Shown here: positions 27,913-48,502 of the stretch, in pieces
Numbering within the stretch: the stretch's first letter is position 1
Layout: every line of letters begins with the position of its first letter
Origin: Candidatus Thorarchaeota archaeon SMTZ1-45
GTDB lineage: Archaea > Asgardarchaeota > Thorarchaeia > Thorarchaeales > Thorarchaeaceae
Reading direction: 5' to 3'
DNA length: 48,502 nt
Assembly (NCBI GenBank): GCA_001563335.1
Contig: LRSL01000054.1
Span: 1 to 48,502 of the forward strand
Translations under genes and position numbers: made by a program
The notes under the pieces: generated by a model
The model's input: the letters and a program-made list of their open reading frames with translations, nothing else
What the model was told of the DNA's origin: nothing
The model's database searches: none

Positions 27913-27983
27913 AATTGAAACTCGCCTTGTTCTAATATAGCTGGATTTGCATTTAGGTTCTTACACAAACCCAATCCCAGCTA

Positions 27984-29042: not shown

Positions 29043-29140
29043 TCGTTTTCTTGATTTAGATATAAGTGTACACGAGATTTATTTAGTAGGACAGTGAGCG
29101 TGTACCCAAACCATTAGAGCATGGAATAGGTGAGATTCGC

Positions 29141-29923: not shown

Positions 29924-30105
29924 ACAACTGTTTGTGCAGATGCACATTATGAACGTTCACTTTTGTACATTACAGCTCGGAAGGGCACAATAAAATGATT
30001 TCCGATGTGGAAAAGAATAAAGGATAATTTACGAAGTTCATGTACAGAAGTGTTCATGCTTCGTGATTTGGGGATTAGCTGCAAATCCTCCGGAGCGAGT
30101 AGATA

Positions 30106-31383: not shown

Positions 31384-31385
31384 TC

Positions 31386-33101: not shown

Positions 33102-33113
33102 AGTAGTTCTCTC

Positions 33114-34286: not shown

Positions 34287-34383
34287 CTACCTTCTCCCTG
34301 AGCTGGCTGTCCCTTTAAGGCAAATGGTTTGGACAACTCATGGTTGCCAAACCTTGATTAGAAGGTGTTCGGGAAGTTGTTTT

Positions 34384-35052
34384 ATGAGCGGTTCGGATGA
34401 GGGAACAATTCTCGTAGTCGTCGCACATCCTGATGATGAGTGCATTGGAGCTGGTGGAACCATAAAGCGACATGTGGACCAGGGTGTGAATGTTGATGTT
34501 CATTGTATGACAGGAAATGATGAGCGTAATGCAGAGCTTCAAAGAGCCTGTGAAATTCTTGGTGTGCGAAATCTGTACCTGAGTGAGCGGGATGATTTTG
34601 CAATTGGTCTGGAACTCACAAACGAGGTAGTCGGAGCAATTCTAAAATCACGTCCCAATTTCATCATCACTCATCATTCCTCTGATTACAACCGCAACCA
34701 TCAGCAGTGTGCAACGATTGTCAGCCAGGCGGCTGAGTGGGCGTCACATGTTACGATCTTTGATGATGCACATAGAGTAGAGCGTATCTACAATATGGAG
34801 ATCAACACAATGATCTCTAGACCCAATGTGCATGTTGATATTACCGCGTCTTATCCTACAGCTTTGGCTGCTCTCAAGAAGCACAAGTCCCAGGTAAAGA
34901 AGGCTGACTCCTACTATGAACAACTATATGATGCAAGAACACGACTACGTGGAGTCCAAGCGAACTGTGAGAGAGCTGAAGCTTTTTCAATAACCCTTCC
35001 AGAACATGCTGGTCCTTTCTATGAGAAAAATAGTGTAGAAAGTCTATTTTAG
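34384..35052 (+). CDS. bshB: PIG-L/LmbE-family deacetylase, probable BshB
   Basis: VVAHPDDE..GAGG, R.AE...A..ILG, VDIT, H.SQ and RG......AEAF; divergent from bshA. Start trimmed to the ATG at 34384. Confidence 0.78.
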   Translation: MSGSDEGTILVVVAHPDDECIGAGGTIKRHVDQGVNVDVHCMTGNDERNAELQRACEILGVRNLYLSERDDFAIGLELTNEVVGAILKSRPNFIITHHSSDYNRNHQQCATIVSQAAEWASHVTIFDDAHRVERIYNMEINTMISRPNVHVDITASYPTALAALKKHKSQVKKADSYYEQLYDARTRLRGVQANCERAEAFSITLPEHAGPFYEKNSVESLF

Positions 35053-35061
35053 CTCAATCCA

Positions 35062-35469
35062 TTACTCCGGACCTTCAGTCTTTCTTCTACGAGCTGCCAA
35101 GAGGGCTTTTAATTCTCCCATCATACTCATACCACCACCAGGCGCACCTGCTGGTTTGGGAGTGGGTGCTCTAGCCATGGTTGGAATTGGTTCCGCGCCA
35201 GCTGCAGGGGCTGCTGCAGGTCCTCCGGTTGATGCTGCCGCCGCAGGAGCGCGAGCTGCCATGGATGACATCCTGTTTTCCAGTGCATCAACTTTACTCT
35301 CTAAATCCATGACGGAAATCTGCAGGTTAGTTATAGCTTCAGTCAACTTAGTCGTGATTATACTGACTACTTCTCCAAGCTGCCGGATTTTTTCCTCGTT
35401 TGGATCCTTCAGTGCCCATTCGAATTCTCCAAGAATTTCTTCTTCAAGTTCTTTCTTTTCATCCGGCAT
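35062..35469 (-). CDS. Coiled-coil / Ala-Pro linker / basic amphipathic helix protein (WH2- or VASP-FAB-like C-terminus)
   Basis: 135 aa with heptads LTEAITNLQISVMDLESKVDALENRM, a low-complexity APAAA..PTPKP linker and GGGMSMMGELKALLAARRRK. TATA-like TTTATA about 45 bp upstream. Confidence 0.75.
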   Translation of the reverse strand: MPDEKKELEEEILGEFEWALKDPNEEKIRQLGEVVSIITTKLTEAITNLQISVMDLESKVDALENRMSSMAARAPAAAASTGGPAAAPAAGAEPIPTMARAPTPKPAGAPGGGMSMMGELKALLAARRRKTEGPE

Positions 35470-35530
35470 TATATTGACCCCAATATTTCAGATTGAAAAG
35501 CTGCAGTTCCGCTATAAACCTTGTTTGGAG

Positions 35531-36907
35531 CTAAGCTGAAGCTATTGTAGCTCTAACAACTTCCTCTGAGGTCCTTAATATTTCTTCTACAGCTTCTCTG
35601 GTCTGCCCCTCGCAGGTAATCCTGATAATGGGTTCTGTCCCTGATGGTCGGACCAGAATCCATCCTTGCTCCATAGTGATTCCAAGTCCATCTACAGTAA
35701 GAACCTCTTTTACATTCCTCATCTTGCTTGGAAGTGTTTCTGAAATAGACTTCATCACACTCTCCTTCTTGTCATTGGGGCACTCCAGCTTACTCCGTAT
35801 GATCGGATATTGAGGAATTGTAGCAATCAACTCTCCAAATGTCTTTTCAGTTCTAGCCATCAGTTCAAGAACTCTACATACTGCTAAAAACGGTTCAGGG
35901 GCGAGATGTGCCTCTGGAAATATATATACTCCACACGCCTCTCCACCAATTACTCCATTTGACTCCGCCACTTTGATTGCCACTTGGATGTCTCCAACAG
36001 GTGTTCGAATTATGTTTCCACCCGCTCTTCTTACGGTTTCATCTAAAACAAGTGAACTGTCGACAGTTGTAACTACTGTGCCACGTTTCGATGCTAACAT
36101 GGCCTGCTGTGCCAGAAGAGCTATAGTTCTGTCTCCCTTGATCACTTCTCCCTGCTCAGTCACAAAGATGACTCTGTCTGAATCACCATCATGTGCTATT
36201 CCTAGATCTGCACCTGTCTGCTTGATCATCTGAATGAGGTCTCCAAGAGATTCTTCATCGGGCTCAGATCGTCTTCCTGGAAAATGACCATCCAATTGAC
36301 CATTTATTGTCACAACATGACAATTGAGACGTTGCATCAAATATGGTGTTAACACACATGCTGCCCCATTACCTGGGTCCACAATAACCCTGAAGGTCTT
36401 CGACCTAATAGCATCCGCATCACATCTCTTCAGCAGTGCTTCAATGTGCTCTTCGACACTATCTTCAAATCTTGACTCCTTCCCAAGTTCATCCCAGTTA
36501 GCAACTTTGAAGTTCTTCTTGTTGTAAATCTCTTCCAGTTTGGTTTCTTCCTTCGCTGTGAATCCCATGCTGTTTCGCGACCAGAACTTGAGTCCAGTGT
36601 ATTGGGGTGGATTGTGCGATGCAGTTATCATGACCCCTGCATCAAAACCATGCTTCATTGTGATGAACGCAAGTGTTGGAGTTGGGATGATTCCAGCACG
36701 TATCACATTGACGCCTGTCGATAATATACCAGCAGTAACAGTATCTGCAATCATGAGGCCTGTGGTACGAGCATCACGAGCAATAACAACAGACCCACTA
36801 CCAACATAGGTCCCAAGAGCTTTGCCGAGATTCAGTGCCATCTCAAGATCAAACTCTTCACTGTATACCTTTCTCACGCCTGTTGTACCAAAGAGCTTAC
36901 CAGTCAT
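35531..36907 (-). CDS. glmM: Alpha-D-phosphohexomutase (phosphoglucosamine mutase/PMM-PGM)
   Basis: LFGTTGVR, ITASHNP (phospho-Ser), HDGDSDR (metal loop), GGE..G and RPSGTEP. Start trimmed to the ATG at 36907. Confidence 0.9.
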   Translation of the reverse strand: MTGKLFGTTGVRKVYSEEFDLEMALNLGKALGTYVGSGSVVIARDARTTGLMIADTVTAGILSTGVNVIRAGIIPTPTLAFITMKHGFDAGVMITASHNPPQYTGLKFWSRNSMGFTAKEETKLEEIYNKKNFKVANWDELGKESRFEDSVEEHIEALLKRCDADAIRSKTFRVIVDPGNGAACVLTPYLMQRLNCHVVTINGQLDGHFPGRRSEPDEESLGDLIQMIKQTGADLGIAHDGDSDRVIFVTEQGEVIKGDRTIALLAQQAMLASKRGTVVTTVDSSLVLDETVRRAGGNIIRTPVGDIQVAIKVAESNGVIGGEACGVYIFPEAHLAPEPFLAVCRVLELMARTEKTFGELIATIPQYPIIRSKLECPNDKKESVMKSISETLPSKMRNVKEVLTVDGLGITMEQGWILVRPSGTEPIIRITCEGQTREAVEEILRTSEEVVRATIASA

Positions 36908-37017
36908 GGGGGTCACACGTCTGTTCGTTACGAATTCAGAAAAAAAGGTACCTACTGTCAAAATACGACTTTGAGCCACAAATCTCTATATTGATTATCT
37001 GCTGTTGACTGGTTGTC

Positions 37018-37812
37018 ATGCCCTTCTTCGAGCACAAAGGTACCAAGATTCACTTTGTAGATGTGGATAATAGAACCGACAAGACATCTAGTTTCACTCT
37101 TGTCTTTGTGCATGGTGCAGGCTCTTCACATCTTATCTGGTCTTTACAACTGAGGGAATTTTCAACTCAGTATCGCACCATCGCTTTAGATCTATCTGGC
37201 CATGGAAAGTCAGAAGACCCTGCGGTTGAACCATCAATAGAGCTGAGCTATGTAGAGGAAGTGGCAGCTCTGGTAAACCACCTCAATCTCGAGAATTTCA
37301 TTCTAGTTGCTCACTCGATGGGGGGCGGTGTGGTGATGTGTTATACTTTGAGAGAGAATGTGCGAAAACCCAAAGCCTTGGTCCTTGTGGACACATCATC
37401 AGACCTGGATCTCTCAAAATTAAGGTCTGGTCTTGTCAAGGAGACCATTGAGGACCGAGTGTTCTTCTTCAAGAGCTGTGTCTTTGAAAACTATACTGCG
37501 ACCTACCAGTTGAAGAAACTCGATGATGATATGAGGCTGGCTAATCCTCAAGTCTTAGCGAGAGACCTCTCTGCTTGTAATAAGTTTAACATAACCGAGA
37601 GGCTTGGAGAGATTGACATCCCTGTCTTTGTCTTGGTTGGATCGAATGATGATATCATCACTCCTGCAATTGCTGCTGACTTTGAGAAGAAATTACCTCG
37701 AGCCGACATCGCGGTCGTAAAGGACGCTGATCATATCCCCATGGTGGAACAACCTGAGGAGTTCAATCAGCTATTTAGGAAATTTATCGAGTGGGTCGCT
37801 CAAAATACTTGA
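37018..37812 (+). CDS. Alpha/beta-fold hydrolase
   Basis: FVHGAG, DLSGHGKS, AHSMGG nucleophile elbow, G..DDI acid and ADHIPM His. Confidence 0.92.
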   Translation: MPFFEHKGTKIHFVDVDNRTDKTSSFTLVFVHGAGSSHLIWSLQLREFSTQYRTIALDLSGHGKSEDPAVEPSIELSYVEEVAALVNHLNLENFILVAHSMGGGVVMCYTLRENVRKPKALVLVDTSSDLDLSKLRSGLVKETIEDRVFFFKSCVFENYTATYQLKKLDDDMRLANPQVLARDLSACNKFNITERLGEIDIPVFVLVGSNDDIITPAIAADFEKKLPRADIAVVKDADHIPMVEQPEEFNQLFRKFIEWVAQNT

Positions 37813-37932
37813 TTCATATTATAAATAGACCATATCTTACCAGTCGGCATAATCTTACGAAACCTTATTAGTCGCATAGACCCTCTATCGCTTTGTCGTC
37901 GTACCGCCTACCACATATGGGTGACTATACAC

Positions 37933-38481
37933 ATGAGCAGCTCTTACGATTACCTGTTTAAAATCGTCGTGTTAGGAGAGGGCGCAGTAGGAAAAACAGC
38001 AATAGTCACTCGATTCTCGCATGGTTTCTTCCGGACTGACTATAAAACCACTATTGGAAGTCAGTTCGCTGTCAAAAATGTCAACATCCCCCGTGATGCT
38101 GGTGATGTCACTGTGAAGCTGCAGATCTGGGATGTCGCTGGGCAAAGCCGATTCCAAATTCTTCGGCCCATGTACTACCGTGGGTCAAGTGGTGGTCTTC
38201 TCGTGTATGATGTTACTCGACGAAGGACCTTCATAGTACTTGAAGAATGGCTTGAGGAGCTTCATAAGGCATTAAACAAAGAAATTCCTCTCGTACTAGT
38301 GGCGAACAAGACAGACCTTCCTGACAGGGTGGTTGAACCTTTAGAGGGGCGCGACTTTGCTGATAGGCACGGAATGCCCTATATCGAGTCTTCTGCTAAG
38401 ACTGGAGAGGGTATTATTGATATCTTCAGTGAGCTTGCAGAAATTCTAGTGGTAACTCGTGAAAAGGGCGGCAACTACTAA
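37933..38481 (+). CDS. Rab-like small GTPase (Ras superfamily)
   Basis: YDYLFKIVVLGEGAVGKT (G1), TIG (G2), WDVAGQ (G3), NKTD (G4) and ESSAK (G5). Confidence 0.95.
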   Translation: MSSSYDYLFKIVVLGEGAVGKTAIVTRFSHGFFRTDYKTTIGSQFAVKNVNIPRDAGDVTVKLQIWDVAGQSRFQILRPMYYRGSSGGLLVYDVTRRRTFIVLEEWLEELHKALNKEIPLVLVANKTDLPDRVVEPLEGRDFADRHGMPYIESSAKTGEGIIDIFSELAEILVVTREKGGNY

Positions 38482-38550
38482 TCTACTATCAGCAATTTTT
38501 GTAGACATCTCAACTAATATCAGTGTAAGTTTTTGATGTGAATTAGCACA

Positions 38551-39132
38551 ATGAGCAAGCCTGACGAATCACATCCAGTAAATGCAATTCCCCCATTAGC
38601 TTGGGCTCTGGAACTCTATCTGAAAGCAGGTGGCAAGTTCAGAGAGGGCAAAATGATTGAGCTCATTTTTCCAGTCGGAGACCATAGGGAAATGATGAGG
38701 AAGAAAGGAGCGCATGACATCTACATGTGGTTCTCAAAGGGTAAAATCAATCTCCGTTCAAGATGCAACTTTGATAAAGCTTGCAGTTTCAACTCTGAGA
38801 GGATAGATGGAGCTGACAGAGAGGCTGTGAAGAGCTTAGAGTGGGGCGAAGCCCGAGCTGACACCTTTTTCAAAGCTCTTCGAAAATGGATAGTTCGTCT
38901 TGATCTTGATTTTGTTACATTCATCAGGGCACTCAATACTGTGTGCGACAAACGTGTGGAGATTCCATTAACCACAAAGTATGGTCGAACATTTCAGAAG
39001 TTTGATGAGTATCGCAGGAACCGTTGGCCTGAGGATGCAACTCCAGACAATCGCGAGCGGTTCATCGAAGAAGTACTTGTTCGAGTCGCATTCTGGATAC
39101 AGTCAGCTCATCAAGTTGGTGCACTGAAATGA
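38551..39132 (+). CDS. Hypothetical protein
   Basis: 193-aa ATG-started ORF filling the gap between the GTPase and the kinase; no motif recognised. Confidence 0.75.
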   Translation: MSKPDESHPVNAIPPLAWALELYLKAGGKFREGKMIELIFPVGDHREMMRKKGAHDIYMWFSKGKINLRSRCNFDKACSFNSERIDGADREAVKSLEWGEARADTFFKALRKWIVRLDLDFVTFIRALNTVCDKRVEIPLTTKYGRTFQKFDEYRRNRWPEDATPDNRERFIEEVLVRVAFWIQSAHQVGALK

Positions 39133-39202
39133 AGCGACTTTGACCTATCAAAACTGCTTTAGAGCACGCATGTCTCTCAAGGATTGAGGTTGTATCAATT
39201 AA

Positions 39203-40339
39203 ATGAACATTGGCCTACTTGTAAATCCCATAGCTGGAATGGGTGGTCGTGTCGGTCTAAAGGGCACAGATGGGGTTGTAGAGGAGGCCATCAAGAGAGG
39301 AGCAACTCCGGTTGCTCCAGGTAGGGCTCTTGAGTTCCTTACAGCTTTGGAATCAATCATCATTGCATTGAAGCTCAGGGATCAGATACGTATCATCACA
39401 TGTCCTGGAAAGATGGGTGAGGATGTTGTTCAAGAGGCAGGTCTAAAACATGAGGTGGTGGAGGTTGATATTGAGAACTCCACAAACGCAGAAGACACAA
39501 AGGACTGTGTCTTAGCCCTCTATGAGGATGAGGTCCGGTTACTAGTTTTCGTTGGTGGAGATGGTACTGCCAGAGACATTCTTGATGCTGTGAATGCCTA
39601 TGATCTTGATGACCTTCTTGTTTTAGGAGTTCCATCAGGAGTCAAGATGTACAGTGGGATTTTCGTGGTGAGCCCTGCTGATGCTGCCGAAGTTGTGCGG
39701 CTGGTCTTTGATGGAACAGCACAGACCACAGAGTTTGAGATTATGGATGCTGATGAAAAATCTATCAGAAGGGACCAGTTCATTATCAATCTCTATGGAT
39801 ATCTAAAAGGACCATCAGTTCCTGCTAGGTTTCAGGGAGCTAAGCAGGCAAGTCCAGAAACCTCTGATGAACACGAGGCACAAGAGGCTATTGCCAAGTA
39901 TGTTATCGAACAGATTGACCAAGATGGGACATACATCCTTGGACCTGGTACCACCTTGAAGACATTGACCGATTTGCTCAATGTCAAAAAGACTACCCTT
40001 GGTGTTGATGTATATAAGAAGGGAAAAATGCACCTTGATGTCAATGAGGATAAAATACTAGCACTTGTTGACGATTTCAGCAAAACATGGATCATCGTGT
40101 CCCCTATTGGTCATCAAGGCATGTTGTTTGGAAGAGGAAATCAACAGATTAGTCCTAAAATCATTGACCTTGTTGGTCGGGATCATATCATTGTGATAAG
40201 CACACCTTCAAAACTGAAGGGCATTGCAGATGAAATTCTTCGAGTTGACACAGGTGATAATCAGGTAGACAATATGCTTCGTGGCTATATCAGAGTGGTT
40301 ACTGATTACAATGAGATGCGCTTGATAAAAATCGAGTGA
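39203..40339 (+). CDS. ATP-NAD/AcoX kinase-family protein (COG3199-like)
   Basis: VNPIAGMGGRVGLKGTDG, GGDGTARD, GVPSGVKMYSG, TTLGVD, GRGNQQIS and LRVDTGD. Confidence 0.88.
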   Translation: MNIGLLVNPIAGMGGRVGLKGTDGVVEEAIKRGATPVAPGRALEFLTALESIIIALKLRDQIRIITCPGKMGEDVVQEAGLKHEVVEVDIENSTNAEDTKDCVLALYEDEVRLLVFVGGDGTARDILDAVNAYDLDDLLVLGVPSGVKMYSGIFVVSPADAAEVVRLVFDGTAQTTEFEIMDADEKSIRRDQFIINLYGYLKGPSVPARFQGAKQASPETSDEHEAQEAIAKYVIEQIDQDGTYILGPGTTLKTLTDLLNVKKTTLGVDVYKKGKMHLDVNEDKILALVDDFSKTWIIVSPIGHQGMLFGRGNQQISPKIIDLVGRDHIIVISTPSKLKGIADEILRVDTGDNQVDNMLRGYIRVVTDYNEMRLIKIE

Positions 40340-40489
40340 CTCTGTTGACAACAAAACAGTACATGATATTGCAGTTTTGGACCTATGGATAAAATAAAAA
40401 ACCATCATAAAACTCAAATGATAAAAAGAAGAACTATCACCACTTAATAGAACATCGGGAACCCTATCAGACATTACATAGTTTACTAA

Positions 40490-40501
40490 AACGATATCGT
40501 T
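40490..40501. promoter_or_regulatory. Perfect 12-bp palindrome AACGATATCGTT next to TATA-like TTTACTAA, upstream of the radA-paralogue operon
   Basis: Seen directly in the AT-rich intergenic region about 170 bp before the first operon gene. Confidence 0.3.
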
Positions 40502-40671
40502 CTGTATCCCCAGTTCTCGGAAATTTGAAGATTATTCTTCCCTTCTTTTTTTGTTAGGTGAATACGATTGTCATTGAAGTTCGCACAGGTGGTTCAGTAT
40601 GATGACGTGTTGATTGACATATTGCACATGTTACTAGCTTCGATTGAATTTGACTATGTGATGGAGGCGAT

Positions 40672-41118
40672 GTGATGTACGTTCAAGAGCATTTGACAGG
40701 TGATATGATTGGATTTGAGGAACACCCGGATCCAGCTTGGATTGCTGGAGCAAAATCTGGAATGACCGAAGCACTCTATCGTGCAAGGTCCAGTGGATGG
40801 AGAGAGTTCTTCGATTCTCTTGAAACCCTCTTCAGACATATGATTGAAGTGCCACCAGCAGAGCCAGGCACATCAACACAGAATGGTTCATTGTACGAAA
40901 CCCTTGGCGGGTATGTTAGTGTTGTGGGAACAATGACCTCTGAGGGTCTCACGTTCTCTGTTCCTCCAATTCGTCAACAAGTGGTAGCATCACTCTTCGC
41001 AGGAATGCAACTCTATCGCAATGGGAAGGAATTACTTGTCCCACATTCGGAGCTTGATATATTCAGCAGACTTGTTCCATTAAGAGGTCCCATTGAGCTG
41101 GAGGTGTTCAACAGATGA
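40672..41118 (+). CDS. Hypothetical protein, first gene of operon
   Basis: SD GGAGG at 40663-40667; the stop overlaps the next start (ATGA). Confidence 0.75.
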   Translation: MMYVQEHLTGDMIGFEEHPDPAWIAGAKSGMTEALYRARSSGWREFFDSLETLFRHMIEVPPAEPGTSTQNGSLYETLGGYVSVVGTMTSEGLTFSVPPIRQQVVASLFAGMQLYRNGKELLVPHSELDIFSRLVPLRGPIELEVFNR

Positions 41119-42203
41119 CTGATGTCGAGGCAGTCCCAGGTGTTGGTCCTGCAGCAGCAAAACGTCTACGTGATGCTTTCATCACTACTGCAGAGATTCT
41201 CAGTGTTCAGAACCCAATCGAACTTCAAGAACGAACAAAGCTAGGGGAAGCCACGGTACGAAAGATAATACGAGCAGCTCGTGATACAACTGGCAAGTTT
41301 GGATTCCGATCAGGTATTGAGCTAGAGAAAGAACAAGCAAAGATCCCTCGACTGTCTTTTGGTATTTCCTCAATTGATGAGAAACTAATGGGTGGATTGG
41401 AGGCTGGTTCCATCATAGAATTCTATGGTGGTTTTTCAAGTGGCAAAACGCAGTGGTGCCATCATCTTGCAGTGCGTGCGCAACTCTCAATAGAGAAGGG
41501 CGGACTTGAGGGAAGAGTGCTGTGGCTTGACTCAGAATCATCATTCAAGACCAATATCATCCGTGCGAATGCAATTAGATGGGGTCTTGACCCTGATGTG
41601 GCTCTTGGCAACATTAACGTCGCGCCAATGGCATTGAGTAGTCAGATCGAGGACACCTTTGAGCAGATTCAACTTCTTCTCGCGGAGGGAGAGTTCAAAA
41701 TGCTCGTGATAGACTCTCTTACTGGTCTATTCCGTGCAGAGTATAGGGGTATTGGAACTCTAGCAACAAGGCAACAGACAATCAATGGTATATTGAACAG
41801 TATGAGACGCATGGGGATTGCTACTGAAGCTGTTTTTGCATATACAAATCAAGTCACCACTCAGATATCAAATTACGGAGGAAATGCCTATGCTCCAGCT
41901 GGTGGGCATGTTGTGAGCCATGCATCCGACTATCGATTCTATGCAGGAAAAGGGTCAGAGGGTAAGCGGAAACTAGTTCTAAGAGACAATGCAGGAGTAC
42001 CAGAATTCACAGTTGAGGTGCATATCGGATGGGGTGGATTCTACAAAGAAAAGAGCGAGAAGACAAGTATGGAAAAGATAATCAAAGAAAAGCTTGGGGC
42101 GCAGCTTGGAGCTCCAGAAGAGGATGAGGAATCCTCCAAGAAGAAGACCACTAAGAAGGCAAAGAAGGGCGAAGATGAACAGACGGAGGAACAGGAGGAG
42201 TGA
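41115..42203 (+). CDS. RadA/Rad51-family recombinase paralogue with charged C-terminal tail
   Basis: N-terminal HhH VPGVGPAAAKRL, linker GFRSG, Walker A GGFSSGKT, LDSE, Walker B LVIDS, LFRAEY.G...LATRQQ, TNQV and GGHVVSHAS. Confidence 0.9.
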   Translation: MTDVEAVPGVGPAAAKRLRDAFITTAEILSVQNPIELQERTKLGEATVRKIIRAARDTTGKFGFRSGIELEKEQAKIPRLSFGISSIDEKLMGGLEAGSIIEFYGGFSSGKTQWCHHLAVRAQLSIEKGGLEGRVLWLDSESSFKTNIIRANAIRWGLDPDVALGNINVAPMALSSQIEDTFEQIQLLLAEGEFKMLVIDSLTGLFRAEYRGIGTLATRQQTINGILNSMRRMGIATEAVFAYTNQVTTQISNYGGNAYAPAGGHVVSHASDYRFYAGKGSEGKRKLVLRDNAGVPEFTVEVHIGWGGFYKEKSEKTSMEKIIKEKLGAQLGAPEEDEESSKKKTTKKAKKGEDEQTEEQEE

Positions 42204-42643
42204 GCTCGGAGGGGAAGACATACAGAGTGTTCACATGTCCCAGATGCAACTACACTGGATACAAATTAGTGCATAACCAAGATGATGAATCAACATGCAA
42301 CCTCTGTTCTACGACAATCCGACACTCACCCGATATGAAGTATGCAAGTTCAGTTGATGAAGCACTCAATGCTATGCAGAGGATGGTAGCGAAATCTCAC
42401 CTAAAGTCTAGACCAAAGACAAGGTATGGACTAGGAGTGAAGAAACGCGTATTGAACATTGTTTCTGATCTCAGCGAGCTCAACAGAAGGAGCGGTGTGA
42501 GTCTATGGCGAGTACTTCAGGAGTGTGAAGAAGCCAGTATTGATATCGAGCGTGCTAAGAGGTTTCTTAACCAACTTGAGGAGGAGGGTTTGATAATAAA
42601 CAATGATGGTGAACTCTTGGTTGCGGAGAGTGATGACTGGTGA
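42200..42643 (+). CDS. Zn-ribbon plus C-terminal winged-helix protein (DUF1922/DUF5817-like architecture)
   Basis: YRVFTCPRC...CNLC and C-terminal VLQECEEASIDIERAKRFLNQLEEEGLI. Confidence 0.78.
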   Translation: MSSEGKTYRVFTCPRCNYTGYKLVHNQDDESTCNLCSTTIRHSPDMKYASSVDEALNAMQRMVAKSHLKSRPKTRYGLGVKKRVLNIVSDLSELNRRSGVSLWRVLQECEEASIDIERAKRFLNQLEEEGLIINNDGELLVAESDDW

Positions 42644-43227
42644 CAGTCGTTCTTCCACCAACCCACAGCTCACACGCTTCTGTAATTAATATGACAAACC
42701 TGCTAATGCGCGACACATCACACAGATTAACCACTGTTCCCCTAGCGTATCCTGAACCTGACCCGGAACTGTATGTGATAACAACAATTGCATGGAGAGA
42801 TGCAACTAAGCCAATTCTATCACAGTTGCCCCGACTTCTATCATACCTTGAGGCATTAAGAGGCACACGGGGAGTTCCCTCTGAGGTATATCTTGATAGT
42901 GGAGAGGGAATGGTCGTATATCTATCCTCAGAAACAAGGGTTTCTGAGATTCCCAATTATGCAAAAGAAGCAGTAAAGTTCCTGAAAGATCTTATTGCAC
43001 AGACTCTGTATTTCTACAAAACGACTGTTGAGGATGTTGAGAAGACATTCTGGAGGATTGCTCGTACAAGGGGCTTCAGTCCTGAGATAGTAGAGCGCTT
43101 AACCACAAAGACAGAAGGTTTCAGATCCCCTGCGGCAATTGAGAGTTTTCACATGATTCTACGTTCTTACTTCTCACTTAGGTTCAGGATTCACAGAGCC
43201 GAGAACTGTCTGCATGTGGAGGGTTGA
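42640..43227 (+). CDS. Hypothetical protein
   Basis: 195 aa; GTGA overlap with the upstream stop and overlap with the downstream helicase start. Confidence 0.75.
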   Translation: MTVVLPPTHSSHASVINMTNLLMRDTSHRLTTVPLAYPEPDPELYVITTIAWRDATKPILSQLPRLLSYLEALRGTRGVPSEVYLDSGEGMVVYLSSETRVSEIPNYAKEAVKFLKDLIAQTLYFYKTTVEDVEKTFWRIARTRGFSPEIVERLTTKTEGFRSPAAIESFHMILRSYFSLRFRIHRAENCLHVEG

Positions 43228-45197
43228 CAATGACTACCACAGCTTCAGATCCAATGACATGGTTTCCATATCAGCCCAGACGACATCAAGAGCGTGTCGT
43301 CTATTTTTCAGAGCAGATATTTTCAGAGGGGACTGTTGGTCTTCTATCTGCAGACTGTGGAATTGGGAAGACAATTGCAACTCTTTCTGGATACCTTTCC
43401 TCACGCTATAATGATCCCACTTCACGATTGCTTGTTCTCACTAGGACACATTCCCAATCGAAAGTGTTTGAAGAGGAGCTAACACAGCTGCGAATCCACT
43501 CAGCAGACCACTTGCTCACTGCTACGAGTATGGTTTCACGAAAACATGTCTGCCCGATGAAGTCATTGATGCAAAACCTCTCCACACTCGGATTCATGCG
43601 AGGTTGTGCAGCTCTAGTCCGAATGGGAGAATGCACACGCTACTGGAACTGCTACAAGAGAAATGGGGATGGACGAACAGTACCCCGACAGAAGTTCCTT
43701 GAGAATATTGATGAGATGCTCAATGACCATGTAGTCAGTCGAATCATCGCTGAAGAAACCAGTGACGAACTAGGACAATGTCCCTATGAGGTTCTCAGGT
43801 GGTGCGCCAAGAAGAGTAGGGTTGTTGTTGGTCCATATGACTACATCTTCAGAAGCAGAGTGAGAATGGCTTTACTAGCATCGCTAGGCGCAGAACTTCA
43901 TGAGATAGACATACTCGTTGATGAAGCACACAATCTCTCCTCGCATGTTCTTGAGGCTGAGGCTGCAGAACTTCGTGGCTCGGACCTGACATGGCTTAGG
44001 GACCATAAGCGGGATATTGTGAATGAAACCAAAGTCCAGTGGCTTGAAGAAACTGTAGACTTCCTCTGGGAAACCACCATGGTAAATCTCGACACACTTA
44101 GAGGTGAGCATCGTCTTGACAAATGGGATGCTTACCCACGTTTCGCAGCACATGGGGATCTTGACAGACTCATTGAGTATAGTACCCCTATGGAGGGTGT
44201 TGATGATTCAGTCCCGATGGACACACCAGTAGACAAGCTAGTTTCTTTCCTATATGCAGGAAAGAGAGCTACTGAGAGTGATGACTGGTTAGTCACAATC
44301 GAGCTTTCCTCAGGATGGGAGGAGCATTTTAGCAAAGACCTCTCTCGAGTTGCTCTTAAGATTAGACCTCTGAATGCTGCTGGACTTGTTGCACAGATAC
44401 TCCGGTCTGCACGATCTGCGTTTCTTATGTCTGGTACATTACGACCATTATCACACTATAAACGGATACTGGGAATTGGAAGCGCTAAGGGGGAGGAGCT
44501 GTCAAGTCCTTATCCACGAGGAACACGCTTGATCCTAGTGGACAAAGAAATATCAACGAGCTACAAGACCCGAAACCCAAACCTGTGGAGGGCGATTGGA
44601 GAACGAATAGAGTTAGTCCTGAAAACAGTTCCTGCTAACAAGAGTGCTATGATTGCTTTCCCCAGCTATGCAATTATGCAGGATGTGCTGAGCTTCGGTA
44701 TAGACTCAGGCTTCAGGGAGCAATTGGTGGAGGACAGAACCATAAAGATTGAGGAAGCTAAGAGTGCACTTGCTGCAAGACCTCATGCATTGTTCTGTGT
44801 GTATGGAGGTAAGGTAAGTGAAGGAGTGGACCTTGTCGATACAGGATCAAGCATGGTTGACATCATCATAGGTGTGGGACTTCCTTTCAGTCCACCAACA
44901 AGCCATCAGAAGGCTCTGCAGGACTTCTATGATAGACGTTATGGACCTGGTTCTGGTTTCTATTACGCAGTGGTGGTCCCATCAATACGTAAAGTGGCAC
45001 AAATGGCTGGAAGACTCAGGAGGTCTCCCGAGGACCGGGGAGTCATTGTGTTGTTGGACAAGCGATTCATGAAACATATCGATGTGTTTGGTGAAGATAC
45101 AGCTGCAGACCTGTGGCCATACAGAGATGTTGATGAGCTAAAGGAGGCAATTGAGATGTTTGTGAAAGGAGGAGCATTTGGTGAAAAACTATCGTGA
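43224..45197 (+). CDS. XPD/Rad3/DinG-family Fe-S 5'-3' DNA helicase
   Basis: Q motif FPYQPRRHQ, Walker A variant ADCGIGKT, RTHSQ, four Fe-S Cys (VCP, GC, EC, CPYE), DEAHNL, MSGTLRP, FPSY, GKVSEGVD, GLPF and QMAGRLRRSPEDRG...LDKRF. Confidence 0.92.
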   Translation: MTMTTTASDPMTWFPYQPRRHQERVVYFSEQIFSEGTVGLLSADCGIGKTIATLSGYLSSRYNDPTSRLLVLTRTHSQSKVFEEELTQLRIHSADHLLTATSMVSRKHVCPMKSLMQNLSTLGFMRGCAALVRMGECTRYWNCYKRNGDGRTVPRQKFLENIDEMLNDHVVSRIIAEETSDELGQCPYEVLRWCAKKSRVVVGPYDYIFRSRVRMALLASLGAELHEIDILVDEAHNLSSHVLEAEAAELRGSDLTWLRDHKRDIVNETKVQWLEETVDFLWETTMVNLDTLRGEHRLDKWDAYPRFAAHGDLDRLIEYSTPMEGVDDSVPMDTPVDKLVSFLYAGKRATESDDWLVTIELSSGWEEHFSKDLSRVALKIRPLNAAGLVAQILRSARSAFLMSGTLRPLSHYKRILGIGSAKGEELSSPYPRGTRLILVDKEISTSYKTRNPNLWRAIGERIELVLKTVPANKSAMIAFPSYAIMQDVLSFGIDSGFREQLVEDRTIKIEEAKSALAARPHALFCVYGGKVSEGVDLVDTGSSMVDIIIGVGLPFSPPTSHQKALQDFYDRRYGPGSGFYYAVVVPSIRKVAQMAGRLRRSPEDRGVIVLLDKRFMKHIDVFGEDTAADLWPYRDVDELKEAIEMFVKGGAFGEKLS

Positions 45198-45774
45198 TAT
45201 TGAGTGGATAAAATGGGTAATACCTGCAGCTGTAATTGTTACATGGGTCACTCGAATCCTAATAGAACCTATAGAAGACATAATACTTGAGTCTGCTTTA
45301 GGGATTGGATTGATGGCTTTAGTAATCCTAACTTACGTTCTTTGGCGAAGACCGATTGTAATGATATGGGATGAAGCTACGGGAATCATGGCAATCCTAC
45401 GCACATGGACTATAGAGGTACAAGCGGGGTGTCTTCTGTCAAGTGTCCCACTGGGTATCGATGTGTCACTTTCTGCTAATAGAGTCCTAAAAGCGATGAG
45501 TGAGAGGTTCTCGAAGGAGAATCTATGTGAACTTAGATTCTTTGTCTGTCGGCCTCTTGCGAATAGCTCCACGCTTGTGGGGATGCAGGTTGTCAGGAGG
45601 TCTCTCAGACTAATGAATGGAGTAGGAGTTGTTCAGAAACTCTCAGAAAAGGTGCATGATGATGTCACCATATTGGAAAGTGCTTTGCATTCCTCCTATC
45701 CACACACACCAGTTGACCGCGCAGGACTCTATGAGATGCAACTTGTGAATAGTGGAGGAATAGTCGGTGGATAA
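45178..45774 (+). CDS. Hypothetical membrane-anchored protein (2 N-terminal TMs plus soluble alpha/beta domain)
   Basis: WVIPAAVIVTWVTRIL and ALGIGLMALVILTYVLW helices; SD GGAGGAG upstream. Confidence 0.72.
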   Translation: MVKNYRDIEWIKWVIPAAVIVTWVTRILIEPIEDIILESALGIGLMALVILTYVLWRRPIVMIWDEATGIMAILRTWTIEVQAGCLLSSVPLGIDVSLSANRVLKAMSERFSKENLCELRFFVCRPLANSSTLVGMQVVRRSLRLMNGVGVVQKLSEKVHDDVTILESALHSSYPHTPVDRAGLYEMQLVNSGGIVGG

Positions 45775-46045
45775 CGAGGTCTCATTAGACATTCCAAAGG
45801 GAGTTAAAGCCAGCTCAGTGATGGAATTCCTAGGGAGGGGTCATGGATATACCTGGTGGACTGTATCAAGAGAACCTGTGTATATGGTTCTTGGTCATCC
45901 CTCTAAGAGCGATCACCCTGAGGTTGTCATACTGAAAGACTCACTCGTAGTCCACACCTCCAGTGAGAATATGCTGATGAGAATGGAAACAATGCTTGAT
46001 GTGCTGGCACGTCAAGTCAAGAGTGGAACGAGAGGTGGAGTCTAG
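45767..46045 (+). CDS. Small hypothetical protein
   Basis: 92 aa with a GTG start after GGAGG; overlaps both neighbours. Confidence 0.65.
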   Translation: MDNEVSLDIPKGVKASSVMEFLGRGHGYTWWTVSREPVYMVLGHPSKSDHPEVVILKDSLVVHTSSENMLMRMETMLDVLARQVKSGTRGGV

Positions 46046-48396
46046 TGGCAAGGAAAAGAGGGAACATCATGGGCTCCAAACCTGCACAAGACCCAATGGA
46101 TCAACTAGAGAGTGCACGCATGAGCATAACCACAGACACTCAAATCCGATGGGATGACCGATCTGTGAAGCCATCATGGGACTATATCTTTTGGCTCTCG
46201 CTTCTTGTAATGGCCTGTGTTTTGTGGTTTCCTTATTTGACAATCATCACAACTAGCATAGTACTAGCAATCATGCTCTTTCTACCATCAATCCAGAGGT
46301 ATCTCGAACTTCGCACCTTGAGTGATATTGATTGGTATGAGGTCCCTCAACCGGATGTGGATTTTGAAAAGAAGGAGAAGTCGCTTCTAAGTCAGGGTGC
46401 AGGTGATGAGAAGCACATCATTGCATTGAACATGAAGAAAGCACAATCCAACCTTCAGGGTGACTTGGGAAAGCTACTGAGAGGTCTTGACACATCACAC
46501 GGTTTCTTGTTGCTAGTGGATCTATTTCCAATAGAATCAAGTCACATTGTAAAGGATGGTGTGGTAACAGGTCCTATCGAGCGCTATCTTGATTATCTCT
46601 CATCATCTCAAAGGAAGGCTTACTTCCACAAAAGAGGCGGTGTTTGGCAGTCACAGCTATACTTTGTAGGACACTCTCGTACAGATCTTGAAGCCAGACT
46701 CATCGAGGGACAGTTTAAGGGAAGTGTTCCAGATGGAGGGCTCAAGAGGATAAAAGAAGAAGACCTCAGTCACAGACTAAAGCAGTGGGACCTGTGTGGT
46801 GGGTTTCCCTCCTTCTTTGCCACTGGAGATGAACTCTCAAATTGGCTTGTTCAGTTACCAAGTGAGCTTGGTCCCGAGGTAGGCAGTAATGTTCCAGGTG
46901 AATTTATTGCTCCAATCCGCAGTCGATCAGACGATTACCCACTGGGTGTAGTTGTGAACCCGGAAACACTCAAGACTGGTCCTTCTGTAGGACTCATGCA
47001 CTCAGACCTTGAACGGGGACTGCTTCTCTGTGGGGGTGATTGGAGGGATAGAAAACATGTTCTCAGCGTCTTGATAGACCATATTCTAGCTAAAGGGAAA
47101 CGGATCTTACTTGTTACTGTGAATGAGGACATGCTAGGACTAGCTGGTCTCAGACCAGAAGGTATGGTTTTAACCCTAGGTAAAGACCTCGTTCTGAATC
47201 CTGTAGATTCTGATGGGATACCAAGAGCTAAGTTTGTTTCTGAGCTACTCCTTTCTTTAGAAACCATTGCAGGAACGAACCTAAGCCCCGCGGCGGACTT
47301 TGAGATAGCACTAAGCAGAGTTGTATCGTTGGGGAATGGTACACTTGCTGATATTGTGATAGACTCGGAACATGAGGCGCTACAAGATGGTTCTACAACA
47401 CAACAGTCTATTCGAATATCAAAAGCCTCTGCTCTTGCTCTTGATGCCATAAAGCGATTACATCAGGGCTCTGGAGCAAAAGCATTCTACGGTACTCAAA
47501 CAGTATCTATGAATAGACTCACATCGCAAAGCCTTGCAGTTGTATTGTTGACAATTGGTGCATTTGACCTTGACATGTTTGCCATGGATCTCATGAGTTT
47601 GAAGTTGTCTGGGCTGCCGCCAGACCCAAATCTCGTAATCATTATCGATACTCCTGAACATCTGAATGTTGCAAAAACTGCTTTCAGATACACCAAAAGA
47701 GGCATCCTGTCAGAGCGTATAGCAAGAGCGTTTGTTAAGAGAGGTCCTCTCGTGCTAAGCACCAAGAATCCCTCAGCTTTGGAGTGGGACACCTCAGACG
47801 TACTAGGGTCATGTATCGCTTTAAGAATGAGGGAGTCTGCAGATATAGCGAATATCTCTGATATTCTGTCATTGAATGTTGTCAGTGGTGGAATACACAG
47901 TAAGGCAAGGCAGTCTTCCCGGGAGAGTTCATTCCTGAGAGTGATGGATCGAGGATATGCTCTCATGACCCATGAGCAGGCAAAGACTTGCATGCCCATC
48001 AAGATAGCACCCCCTCCTGAATTAAGGACAGTATCCAATGAGGGGGTAGACCTGCTAACTAGGTCTGAATCGCTTGGAGATGCATATTTAGAATCGTCAG
48101 ATAGACCTACTACACTCATAGAACAAATAGGTGGACGAGACAGTGAAGCTGTGAAGGAAGTACTTAGACTTCTAACACGATATGAACCCCTTACAGAAGA
48201 GTCGGTGAAGCGTTTCCTAATTGCCAAAGGGGGTGCAGATGTTGATGTTGAAGCCATTCTTTCAAGACTCGAGAATGCCAGTATGATCCTAAGAGGTCAC
48301 GAGATTCACACTGGAGTGTCCTACAAAAACTACCGGATTACTATGAAGGGGAGTATGGCACTAAGAAATGCAGAGGTGGTGAGTTCCGAAGGATGA
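46045..48396 (+). CDS. Membrane-anchored HerA/VirB4-like protein with degenerate Walker motifs and C-terminal winged helix
   Basis: N-terminal TM hairpin. DLERGLLLCGGDWRDRK occupies the Walker A position, with LVLNP, LVIIIDTPEH at Walker B and LVLSTKNPSAL...CIALRM. C-terminal LLTRYEPLTEE...LSRLENASMI...YRITMKG. Confidence 0.7.
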   Translation: MARKRGNIMGSKPAQDPMDQLESARMSITTDTQIRWDDRSVKPSWDYIFWLSLLVMACVLWFPYLTIITTSIVLAIMLFLPSIQRYLELRTLSDIDWYEVPQPDVDFEKKEKSLLSQGAGDEKHIIALNMKKAQSNLQGDLGKLLRGLDTSHGFLLLVDLFPIESSHIVKDGVVTGPIERYLDYLSSSQRKAYFHKRGGVWQSQLYFVGHSRTDLEARLIEGQFKGSVPDGGLKRIKEEDLSHRLKQWDLCGGFPSFFATGDELSNWLVQLPSELGPEVGSNVPGEFIAPIRSRSDDYPLGVVVNPETLKTGPSVGLMHSDLERGLLLCGGDWRDRKHVLSVLIDHILAKGKRILLVTVNEDMLGLAGLRPEGMVLTLGKDLVLNPVDSDGIPRAKFVSELLLSLETIAGTNLSPAADFEIALSRVVSLGNGTLADIVIDSEHEALQDGSTTQQSIRISKASALALDAIKRLHQGSGAKAFYGTQTVSMNRLTSQSLAVVLLTIGAFDLDMFAMDLMSLKLSGLPPDPNLVIIIDTPEHLNVAKTAFRYTKRGILSERIARAFVKRGPLVLSTKNPSALEWDTSDVLGSCIALRMRESADIANISDILSLNVVSGGIHSKARQSSRESSFLRVMDRGYALMTHEQAKTCMPIKIAPPPELRTVSNEGVDLLTRSESLGDAYLESSDRPTTLIEQIGGRDSEAVKEVLRLLTRYEPLTEESVKRFLIAKGGADVDVEAILSRLENASMILRGHEIHTGVSYKNYRITMKGSMALRNAEVVSSEG

Positions 48397-48502
48397 CCTC
48401 TATTACAGATGTCCCTGCAAACGTCACCCGTATACTAAAACAGGCAGGCATTACTCCTCGAGGAATTCAAACTCAAGCAGTGGAAAAAGGGCTTCTTGAT
48501 GG
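48393..48502 (+). CDS. 5' end of a probable Ski2/Hel308-like SF2 helicase (truncated by the window end)
   Basis: ATGA overlap. Translation MTSITDVPANVTRILKQAGITPRGIQTQAVEKGLLD matches the Hel308 Q-motif pattern L...GI....Q..AV..GLL.G. Confidence 0.65.
   Translation, partial: MTSITDVPANVTRILKQAGITPRGIQTQAVEKGLLD

Follow-up and report, generated by a model that had tools for sequence, protein, structure and literature searches.

A conserved 14-gene operon in Thorarchaeota links a RadA paralogue and two helicases to membrane-anchored proteins and looks like an undescribed DNA-handling machine

The window analyzed in this study is the 48,502-nt stretch at positions 1..48,502 (forward strand) of contig LRSL01000054.1 from Candidatus Thorarchaeota archaeon SMTZ1-45 (GCA_001563335.1). 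An earlier note on this DNA had described at least nine overlapping same-strand ORFs near its end. The ORF listing of the window contained nine such ORFs on the + strand between positions 40672 and 48502, and all eight junctions were confirmed to overlap, by 1-20 nt each, with a 4-nt overlap (ATGA, GTGA, or TTGA) at five of them. The features are listed below.

40340..40671, +, upstream intergenic region, 331 nt, AT-rich
40672..41118, +, g1, conserved soluble protein, 148 aa; stop overlaps the g2 start (ATGA)
41115..42203, +, g2, RadA paralogue, 362 aa; N-terminal HhH, RecA core, charged C-terminal tail
42200..42643, +, g3, 147 aa; CxxC...CxxC zinc ribbon, C-terminal winged helix
42640..43227, +, g4, conserved soluble protein, 195 aa; 24 invariant columns in 13 orthologues, including the sister family
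43224..45197, +, g5, XPD/Rad3-type FeS helicase paralogue, 657 aa; DEAD_2, Helicase_C_2, HBB
45178..45774, +, g6, 198 aa; N-terminal membrane hairpin (1-2 TM), then a conserved domain of ~140 aa
45767..46045, +, g7, small conserved soluble protein, 92 aa; in 15/17 and 22/22 loci of the two sets of relatives described below
46045..48396, +, g8, 783 aa; two N-terminal TM helices, N-domain, VirB4/HerA-fold P-loop domain, C-terminal winged helix
48393..48502, +, start of g9 (36 aa), Hel308-type helicase; remainder on contig C40

The 331-nt region was the sole sizeable gap ahead of the run of overlapping genes and is the likely promoter region. The window ended inside g9, and the operon carried on in two further contigs of the assembly and in relatives. 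The downstream contig sought in the earlier note was located through the final 27 nt of the window, which correspond to the reverse-complement end of C40, where g9 continues. The full operon consisted of 14 co-linear genes, followed by two linked downstream genes, one for a 4-5-TM protein and the other for a surface protein of 2295 aa; the nine ORFs first noted were real, and the system is larger. Its second half, outside the window, encodes two RadB-like paralogues, a FEN1-like nuclease with a PIP box, further membrane proteins, and the giant surface protein. Besides the RadA paralogue, the helicases, the nuclease, and the RadB-like pair, the operon encodes four membrane-anchored proteins.

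The order of g1-g14 was kept in 17/17 loci of a first set and 22/22 of a second set, hence in all 39 relatives' loci examined (one family plus its sister family), up to the point where each contig or fetched region ends. All 14 genes were present in 5/17 and 15/22 of these loci, respectively, and the two loci without g7 were broken off by the end of the contig or region. Sampling of 85 genomes of the family turned up g8 in 53, and the single genome sampled from the sister family carried it too (1/1); within the family, 15 of 16 sampled genera had the operon. Because all eight junctions in the window overlap, gene order is conserved, and g8 is widespread, g1-g14 form one unit. A reduced core recurred in other families of the phylum, in which the nuclease differed, being FEN-like or PLD-like (PLDc_2). 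At one locus in another family an Imm5-like gene adjoined the core, and in one family the neighbour of the core was an HhH-domain TM protein.

The earlier note had also allowed that the operon might lie within a provirus or conjugative element. A module for replication or recombination carried by an integrated virus, plasmid, or conjugative element would fit the VirB4-like fold of g8, the variation of flanking genes between genomes, the PHROG matches for g2 and g5, and the fact that large viral genomes carry helicases, a recombinase, and FEN together. However, the flanks were metabolic (genes such as NAD kinase, phosphoglucomutase, and OMP decarboxylase), no integrase or tRNA was found near the operon, tblastn with g8 against 50,697 phage and 72,556 plasmid records gave no match, and IMG/VR yielded no confirmed relative. 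In addition, orthologue identity fell from 70% to 23% in step with the divergence of the genomes, each of which carried a single copy. We therefore consider a mobile origin very improbable.

The assignment of g2 as a RadA paralogue was borne out. It matched Rad51 (about 170 bits, versus 328 bits for a better-scoring radA on contig C92) and HHH_5 in Pfam, fell under the NCBIfam RadA cut-offs (249.9 vs. 259 and 234.5 vs. 361), and had P. furiosus RadA (1pzn, E = 1.8e-59) as its best solved relative. The Walker A motif GxxxxGKT and the Walker B Asp were retained in 32/33 orthologues, and in the tree the g2 clade (SH-aLRT 99) branched apart from the clade holding canonical RadA from five families (94). 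For some Asgard archaea, Matsuo et al. (2025; PMC12722695) report full-length RadA paralogues that differ from the canonical copy in the same genome, and g2 resembles this second clade in its distinctness; the part of that text available to us makes no mention of synteny, operon, or neighbour, whereas the genomic context of g2 is given here.

The matches of g5 to DEAD_2, Helicase_C_2, and HBB agreed with its initial description as XPD-like, and its Walker A motif, DEAH motif, and four Cys (C110, C128, C137, and C186) were retained in 36-37 of 38 orthologues. Likewise, the 36-aa frame read as a Hel308-like start extended into a Hel308-type helicase, 77% identical to g9 of the closest relative. 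Hel308 NCBIfam models and solved Hel308 structures covered only residues ~7-445 of g9. A SWIM-type zinc insert, CxC-x(6-30)-CxH, was present in 36/36 orthologues, and Pfam SWIM was absent among the matches listed for g9. The core-linked helicases of other families are candidate orthologues of g9, a point on which the helicase tree gave no clear placement. Of the two RadB-like paralogues, g11 had an intact P-loop and g13 had lost it. The FEN1-like nuclease g14 ended in the PIP-box-like motif Q[ST]TLEQW[LIVF], which nearly all of the 28 listed orthologues share. Because motifs were intact in the orthologue alignments, g2, g5, g9, g11, and g14 are predicted to be active enzymes.

Further copies of these enzymes, which the earlier note had proposed to look for, were found elsewhere in the genome. 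In addition to the radA on C92, a canonical xpd lay on C24 next to PolD, RPA, and topoisomerase genes and scored better than g5, a separate Hel308-like gene without the zinc insert of g9 lay on C69, and a FEN1 fragment scoring better than g14 lay on C55. The existence of these copies and the distinct g2 clade indicate that the operon is not the housekeeping set.

Conserved hydrophobic helices were detected by hydrophobicity scan in g6, g8, g10, g12, and d15, which ties the operon to the membrane. The N-terminal hydrophobic hairpins of g6 (25 orthologues aligned) and g8 were called by Kyte-Doolittle scan, in agreement with the 2-TM description of g6. In the g10 model (pLDDT 77), a long helical hairpin separated two soluble domains. 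Profiles of g6 and g12 matched nothing among PDB sequences. The topology predicted for g6, g8, and g10 would place all their soluble domains in the cytoplasm, so these proteins resemble anchors rather than a channel.

The AF2 model of g8 had a pLDDT of 60 overall and of 70-90 over residues ~300-600 (medium confidence). Its top Foldseek match was HerA 4d2i (E = 4e-11), and its best structural score was to VirB4 4ag6 (Z 23.0, rmsd 3.6, 301 aligned), followed by DndH-C (Z 20.9), HerA (Z 19-20), and the HerA of the SIR2-HerA and DUF4297-HerA defence complexes (Z 16-20). Together with the hairpin, which we take to resemble VirB3-VirB4 fusions, the modelled fold supports the call of a TM-anchored HerA/VirB4-like protein. 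The Walker A motif of g8 was degenerate, with no GK[ST] in the 16 orthologues and 8 distant relatives inspected (24/24). Because the Walker A lysine is absent, g8 cannot be the usual translocation motor, and the suggestion that it acts as a scaffold fits.

In having a HerA-superfamily protein beside nuclease and recombination genes, and in the match of g8 to HerA structures, the operon resembles the archaeal HerA-NurA/Mre11-Rad50 operon. Unlike that operon, domain searches placed no NurA, Mre11, or Rad50 domain in any of its proteins, its HerA-like protein is membrane-anchored and without the P-loop lysine, and its nuclease is FEN1-like. The fold matches of g8 to defence proteins are also consistent with a system against viruses or mobile DNA, comparable with Zorya, Hachiman, and HerA-based systems, in which g8 would be a sensor or scaffold recruiting the helicases and nuclease, and incoming DNA would be destroyed or out-recombined. 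Matches of g9 to HamB and PDC-M23B helicase models and of g5 to a type IV CRISPR DinG model (249 bits), the exchange of the nuclease module between families, and the Imm5-like neighbour point the same way. In contrast, no PADLOC model matched any non-helicase gene of the operon, and there was no system-level match. A full-length recombinase with intact motifs, two paralogues, and a predicted PCNA-binding flap nuclease would be unusual defence parts, and the metabolic flanks, single copy, fixed order, and near-universal presence among genera are unlike patchy defence islands. This explanation is thus unlikely.

The cluster has the look of an undescribed machine that acts on DNA at the cell membrane; our literature searches found no account of it, and the earlier note knew of no described system with this composition. 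We infer its function to be DNA uptake or membrane-tethered repair. The reading that we tentatively prefer, without calling it probable, is a chromosomally inherited, membrane-anchored machine for DNA exchange and dedicated homologous recombination, loosely like Ced/Ted. According to the part of the source available, Ced/Ted of Thermoproteota are VirB4-based DNA importers domesticated from type IV secretion, and at Ted loci HerA and Rad50 lie close by, which was read as import coupled to homologous recombination (PMC9905601). As far as described there, these systems and the operon are alike chromosomal, non-mobile clusters with a VirB4/HerA-family protein and small membrane proteins, a likeness by gene content and by fold. 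Unlike Ced/Ted, g8 has lost the Walker A lysine and the operon contains no recognisable VirB6/CedA-like pore or VirB2-like pilin. It has, in addition, helicases of the XPD and Hel308 types, the RadA paralogue with two RadB-like proteins, a FEN1-like nuclease, and the giant surface protein, and its VirB4-like protein bears a winged helix. This protein is predicted from its sequence to be secreted with a C-terminal anchor, lay downstream of the operon in 12 genomes, and adjoined the reduced core in another family. A DNA-transfer flavour is thus suggested by the g8 core and hairpin, by the Ced/Ted parallel, and by the linked secreted giant protein and the TM/HhH neighbour.

In such an exchange machine, the VirB3/VirB4-like pseudo-ATPase g8, with its winged helix, would form a ring platform with the hairpin and multi-pass proteins g6, g10, and g12 at the inner membrane face, hold DNA, and recruit g5 (5'-3'), g9 (3'-5'), and the flap nuclease g14. 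The single-stranded product would be passed to g2, whose loading may be aided by g11 and g13, perhaps via the SWIM-type finger of g9, while the giant surface protein would mediate cell-cell contact. Chromosomal DNA would thereby be exchanged or imported in direct coupling to homologous recombination. We infer the complex itself, DNA as its substrate at the membrane, the direction of transfer, and the surface-protein role from gene content and models. Every gene call of the earlier note was borne out, and its three refuting outcomes (gene order not conserved, no other radA, xpd, or hel308 copies, and a provirus or conjugative element) were each contradicted; delivery of DNA to a specialised recombinase may be the function.

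The mediator step has eukaryotic parallels in the parts of the sources available: HELQ binds RAD51 and the BCDX2 paralogues (PMC13623763), and Shu2/SWS1-family SWIM proteins bind RAD51 paralogues (PMC6316741). These, with the invariant SWIM-type motif of g9, suggest a recombination-mediator logic. The operon resembles HELQ-BCDX2 in combining a Hel308/HELQ-type helicase, a recombinase, and two RecA-fold paralogues, one without Walker A, and g9 carries the CxC..CxH(xxA) signature defining the Shu2/SWS1 finger of Shu2/SWS1-SWSAP1. Unlike Shu2/SWS1, the motif lies inside a helicase rather than in a separate small protein, and unlike both modules as described there, the set is membrane-anchored and operonic.

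The same enzymes would serve membrane-tethered repair of the cell's own chromosome with no DNA crossing the membrane, a possibility that we regard as doubtful and yet nearly as likely as DNA exchange. Here the XPD-type and the Hel308-type helicase, a flap nuclease bound to PCNA, and a dedicated RadA filament would act at a membrane-attached site on stalled forks, crosslinks, or double-strand breaks, or pair chromosome copies in a polyploid cell. The PIP box of g14, XPD, and Hel308 suit replication-fork/crosslink repair at least as well as transfer, and Hel308/HELQ with RAD51 paralogues serve recombination and crosslink tolerance in the available part of PMC13623763. Cytoplasmic soluble domains, the pseudo-ATPase, and vertical inheritance of a near-universal operon in the family agree with repair. 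Further points weigh against DNA transfer: besides the missing pore, pilin, and Walker A lysine, domain searches revealed no ComEC, DprA, or secretin-like gene in the operon; nuclease variation and an Imm5-like neighbour are typical of conflict systems; and the giant protein could be linked for another reason. Repair, however, leaves unexplained the conserved linkage to the 2295-aa protein and d15 and the VirB4-like fold as the best-scoring match. Housekeeping copies of the same enzymes are already present, and our literature searches turned up no earlier case of a repair set like this being obligatorily membrane-anchored.

The remaining soluble proteins belong to no known family. No match to g1, g4, or g7 was found in Pfam, NCBIfam, PADLOC, or PHROG, and the g4 profile matched nothing among PDB sequences. 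Nine columns of g1 were invariant across 26 aligned orthologues. For g3, weak matches to DUF5817 and WHD_MCM8 and four Cys (C13, C16, C33, and C36) invariant in 10 orthologues agreed with the zinc-ribbon/winged-helix architecture first proposed.

The eight genes g1 to g8 and the start of a ninth, g9, are encoded on one strand, and all eight junctions between g1 and g9 are overlaps of 1 to 20 nt, with 331 nt of AT-rich intergenic sequence 5' of g1. The assembly consists of 119 contigs (87.7% complete, 5.8% contamination), and the window is the whole of contig C54. Its final 27 nt are identical to the reverse-complemented end of contig C40, indicating that the operon continues there. A multi-pass membrane protein gene (d15) and the gene of a giant surface protein, both linked downstream of g14, were located on contig C33.

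Genes of the operon and of its downstream continuation
40672-41118, +, ORF g1
41115-42203, +, ORF g2
42200-42643, +, ORF g3
42640-43227, +, ORF g4
43224-45197, +, ORF g5
45178-45774, +, ORF g6
45767-46045, +, ORF g7
46045-48396, +, ORF g8
from 48393, +, start of g9, a frame open past the window end
C40 (locus L043) 4766-6862, -, remainder of g9, continuing from the window end
C40, g10, 572-599 aa according to the start codon chosen, two central transmembrane (TM) helices
C40, g11, 225 aa, RadB-like, P-loop intact
C40, g12, 324 aa, 3-4 TM helices
C40, g13, 239 aa, Rad51/RadB-like without Walker A
C40, g14, XPG_N and XPG_I domains, truncated by the contig end
end of C33, d15, 199 aa, 4-5 TM helices
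C33 (locus L071) 11735-18622, -, giant protein, 2295 aa

The giant protein begins with a signal-type sequence and ends in a TM anchor and basic residues beyond it, and its domains comprise a prenyltransferase-like alpha-alpha toroid, Big_1, Big_3_5, and filamin Ig-like repeats. Giant secreted proteins with toroid and Ig-like domains were linked to the module in three families (including L032 16283-19528, - strand). The giant protein of the sister family (L029) also matched the macroglobulin domains MG2 and MG4, a hint of an architecture like that of alpha-2-macroglobulin.

The operon encodes one membrane-anchored set of DNA enzymes under strong constraint, a duplicate of the toolkit for recombination and repair that the same genome has for housekeeping. 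Canonical RadA is encoded on C92 (328 bits), canonical XPD on C24, where it adjoins topoisomerase, PolD DP2, and RPA genes, and a Hel308-like protein of 749 aa on C69; a FEN1 fragment lies at the end of C55. On C24 (L044 7572-11035), the 648-aa canonical XPD is followed by a 307-aa Rad51/KaiC-like paralogue, so that xpd adjoins a RadA paralogue at the housekeeping locus too.

As judged from its sequence, g2 is a RadA-family paralogue and not the housekeeping RadA. It matched Rad51 with 170 bits, carries an N-terminal HHH_5 domain, and scored below the RadA equivalog cut-offs (249.9 versus 259 and 234.5 versus 361), and its Walker A and B motifs were kept in 32 of 33 sequences. A quick maximum-likelihood tree covered 33 RadA-family sequences and was built without 16 further operon g2 sequences; in it, 17 operon g2 proteins formed one clade (SH-aLRT 99) and nine canonical RadAs of five families formed a separate one (SH-aLRT 94); the g2-like genes of other families fell outside the canonical clade, with their placement otherwise without support. 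Two RadA clades have been described in some Asgard lineages, and the accessible sections of that paper make no mention of gene context (PMC12722695). Long, highly charged C-terminal tails of variable sequence were seen in g2 (residues ~300-362) and g10 (~445-572) in all orthologues printed, and are probably disordered.

The product of g5 contains DEAD_2, Helicase_C_2, and HBB domains together with the four-cysteine FeS domain and DEAH box of XPD/Rad3 helicases; Walker A, DEAH, and the four cysteines were kept in 36-37 of 38 sequences. Its score of 172.6 against a TIGR00604 cut-off of 246.95 marks it as a divergent member of the XPD/Rad3 family. g3 has four invariant cysteines and gave weak Zn-ribbon and winged-helix matches. 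The GxxGxGKT motif is intact in g11 and absent from g13. In g14, XPG_I and XPG_N are both present and the acidic FEN motifs are conserved, as in FEN1; because it scored below the fen_arch cut-off (104.8 versus 351.95), it was assigned as a FEN1 paralogue. Almost every one of 28 g14 sequences has Q[ST]TLEQW[LIVF] at the C-terminus, which we take to be a putative PIP box.

The helicase g9 has kept Walker A, DE(I/V)Q, and motif VI, and scored 344 bits against the Hel308 model, whose cut-off is 887. Models and structures matched residues ~7-445 only, so that the five-domain Hel308/Hjm architecture with its ratchet and HLH domains was not recovered. The C-terminal ~280 aa contain a CxC..CxH insert (residues ~485-520) that is missing from the other Hel308-like gene of the genome. 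All 36 g9 orthologues had CxC-x(6-30)-CxH, 20 of them with the final Ala, suggesting a putative SWIM finger of the Shu2/SWS1 type (CxC...CxHxxA); the Pfam SWIM family was not among the matches listed for g9. According to the available part of PMC6316741, CxC...CxHxxA is the SWIM signature and Shu2/SWS1 binds RAD51 paralogues, and the accessible sections of PMC13623763 report an interaction of HELQ with RAD51 and BCDX2. A TM helix at the C-terminus of g9 appeared in a single orthologue and was rejected for that reason.

g8 was modelled with AlphaFold2 from 16 orthologues (mean pLDDT 60, with residues ~300-600 at 70-90). The top Foldseek matches of the model were HerA (4d2i, E 4e-11), VirB4/TrwK, and defence-type HerA. 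VIA-align superposed residues 289-661 on VirB4 4ag6 with a Z score of 23.0 (rmsd 3.6, 301 aligned), compared with 20.9 for DndH-C, 19-20 for HerA, about 17 for TrwB, and about 13 for FtsK; full-length TrwK/VirB4 7o43 gave Z 16.1 with residues 97-686. The model thus predicts a VirB4/CedB-like ATPase fold. At the P-loop position, g8 reads CGG(T/D)xxSR, and no GK[ST] of a competent Walker A (GxxGxGK[ST]) was found in the 16 orthologues or in 12 sequences including 8 distant relatives. A Kyte-Doolittle scan placed N-terminal hydrophobic hairpins on both g6 and g8, and the C-terminus of g8 is a winged helix, with distant homologues matching HTH_34, PadR, and HTH_24. The earlier note had described g8 as a TM-anchored HerA/VirB4-like scaffold; the hairpin, the fold matches, and the P-loop without GK[ST] together support that label. 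The family is small: a search of 1.84 billion proteins at E <= 0.001 yielded 169 representatives. If the system is real, a whole family of VirB4/HerA-fold proteins would have given up the P-loop lysine. A second HerA-family gene (729 aa, 22020-24209, +, DUF87 E 2.4e-9) lies ~20 kb upstream of the operon, and its neighbours at 17834-20179 (-) and 27984-29042 (-) had no Pfam match.

Several of the conserved proteins fall into no known family. g1, g4, g6, g7, and g8 had no match in Pfam, NCBIfam, PADLOC, or PHROGs, and profiles of g3, g4, g6, g8, g10, and g12 found nothing below E 0.1 among PDB sequences. g6 (198 aa) combines its hairpin with a conserved C-terminal domain, and g7 has no hydrophobic helix. 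The ESM Atlas held no usable match and no model for g10 and g12. Our model of g10 reached a pLDDT of 77 overall and >90 for residues 30-440, and predicts an alpha/beta N-terminal domain, a helical hairpin of ~80 residues with a hydrophobic stretch, a helical bundle, and a disordered tail. The whole model had no Foldseek match at E <= 0.001, and a wide VIA search returned only generic helical hairpins (Z about 8-10, residues 186-291).

The operon is conserved well beyond the window. g8 was detected in 21 of 41 relatives' genomes, the window's own included, and in 17 of 24 within the genus. A phylum-wide draw at E <= 1e-5 recovered it in 86 of 400 genomes, including 53 of 85 of the family and the one genome drawn from the sister family; about ten other families had weaker matches of reduced or extended length. 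Four of the five genus members without a g8 match (85-93% complete) had no g10 match either; the fifth has g10, which points to an assembly gap. In two surveys, the detected genes were co-linear from g1 to g14 on one strand in 17/17 and 22/22 loci. All 14 genes were found in 5/17 and 15/22 of these, the remaining loci being incomplete owing to contig or region ends, masking of one stretch, or search thresholds. An array of overlapping genes in the sister-family genome retains g2, g3, g4, g5, two small ORFs, g8, g9, a 503-aa ORF, d15, and the giant gene. d15 and the giant gene follow the operon in the window's own genome (G000) and in relatives G005, G001, G002, G016, G012, G339, G394, G386, G389, G391, and G025, and the distal flanks differ between genomes. 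No RNA dataset was listed among those with operon sequence; the four DNA datasets are marine sediment or seawater metagenomes, and one of them may itself be the source.

Five further families have a reduced core consisting of a g8-like protein, a Ski2/Hel308-type helicase, a g11-like RecA-fold ATPase, and several small TM proteins. In other families the g8-like protein is frequently encoded by two genes, one for the TM/N-terminal part and one for a core of roughly 520 aa, or else reaches about 1260 aa. Extras vary: a divergent full-length RadA (Pfam Rad51 170-245 bits, versus 304-338 bits for the five canonical RadA copies of those four genomes), a FEN-like or PLDc_2 nuclease, a TM protein with Peptidase_M28 or HHH_5, and, in one other family, a toroid-bearing giant protein directly upstream of the core. 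The g9 HMM matched the core-linked helicases at E 1e-123 to 1e-160, compared with 3e-102 for the canonical Hel308-like gene, and CxC-x(6-30)-CxH was present in 5/5 core-linked helicases of other families. The helicase tree was unresolved, with long branches, and was partly contradictory: two core-linked helicases of one other family grouped with the canonical Hel308-like gene (SH-aLRT 90), possibly a long-branch artefact. Orthology of g9 with the distant core helicases was therefore based on the HMM scores and the CxC..CxH insert. At one locus, the reduced core directly adjoins the gene of a TPR protein and that of a putative immunity protein resembling Imm5 (L102, G149:C1, 11751-12266, -; E 2.6e-44).

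We also weighed whether the operon belongs to a mobile element or a defence system. The window contains no tRNA, and the operon is flanked by genes for NAD kinase, a Ras-type GTPase, a hydrolase, phosphoglucomutase, a glycosyltransferase, OMP decarboxylase, and a permease. g8 had no match in phage and plasmid collections and no confirmed relative in IMG/VR, and a mobile-element origin of the operon appears extremely improbable. Among the signature proteins of PADLOC-DB 2.0, no family matched g1, g4, g6, g7, g8, g10, g12, g13, g14, d15, or the giant protein. Matches came from generic helicase models, namely typeIV_DinG for g5 and HamB/PDC-M23B for g9, together with weak partial ones of g3 to LmuB (E 3.5e-4) and of g11 to mad8 and AbiO. 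A defence function is accordingly considered unlikely.

Among known systems, the T4SS-derived Ced/Ted DNA import of Thermoproteota shares the VirB4/CedB-like fold with g8. g8 differs in lacking the competent Walker A expected of the VirB4-like protein in such a system. Candidates for a VirB6/CedA-like pore (6-7 TM) are g12 (3-4 TM) and d15 (4-5 TM), and the g12 profile matched nothing among PDB sequences, VirB6-type chains included. No small two-helix secreted pilin of the VirB2/CedA1 type was seen among g1-g14 (ORFs of at least 50 aa), and none of these genes had a NurA, Mre11, or Rad50 Pfam match that would point to a HerA-NurA/Mre11-Rad50 system. In the available part of PMC9905601, Ced and Ted are described as T4SS-derived with VirB4, VirB6, and VirB2 homologues, and Ted loci as carrying HerA, Rad50, and ParA. 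The accessible sections of PMC12993045 do not mention such a cluster, and no description of it was found in full-text searches of main texts outside subscription journals. We rate the cluster as belonging, at the system level, to no described kind, and its recognisable parts are all of known protein families.

Regarding function, DNA exchange coupled to recombination is tentatively our first choice, because of the VirB4-like platform, a giant surface protein in fixed linkage, and the Ced/Ted precedent. Membrane-tethered repair, which the earlier note had proposed beside DNA uptake, follows close behind as a possible though doubtful reading; it is favoured by the dead P-loop of g8, by anchors with a predicted cytoplasmic topology, by the putative PIP-box nuclease, and by the fact that no pore or pilin was recognised. 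The probability left over goes to functions other than exchange, repair, defence, or a mobile element.

An extension of the DNA exchange reading, which we regard as rather improbable, is that Asgard-type archaea exchange DNA between cells by means of an ancient apparatus passed on vertically, a prokaryotic forerunner of the eukaryotic HELQ/BCDX2 and Shu modules. The giant protein, as an adhesin, and the VirB4-derived membrane platform would then deliver DNA directly to a dedicated RadA filament. A HELQ-like helicase with an SWS1-type SWIM finger and mediators resembling RAD51 paralogues would serve to build this filament; the apparatus might also be a forerunner of recombination tied to cell contact. 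If real, the operon and its linked genes would be a lineage-wide system of roughly 16 genes in the archaeal group held closest to eukaryotes, physically linking a VirB4-type membrane platform, a second RadA with RAD51-paralogue-like helpers, and HELQ/XPD-family helicases, that is, platforms, dedicated recombinases, and helicases that are otherwise studied separately. It would offer testable handles on DNA exchange or repair in these uncultured archaea, and candidate sources of the partnerships that RAD51 paralogues, HELQ, and SWS1 form in eukaryotes.

Other genes of the window were also identified. Two genes upstream of the operon, a Ras-family small GTPase (37921-38481, +; Ras 166 bits, Roc 109 bits) fits an Asgard-type origin; this gene and the archaeal replication genes are the basis on which the Asgard designation stands. 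Further upstream, genes for a BshC-like Rossmann protein (31386-33101, -), a GT4 glycosyltransferase (33114-34286, -), and a PIG-L-type deacetylase (34324-35052, +) form a group that, by predicted family, resembles in this archaeon a bacillithiol-type bshC/bshA/bshB trio.
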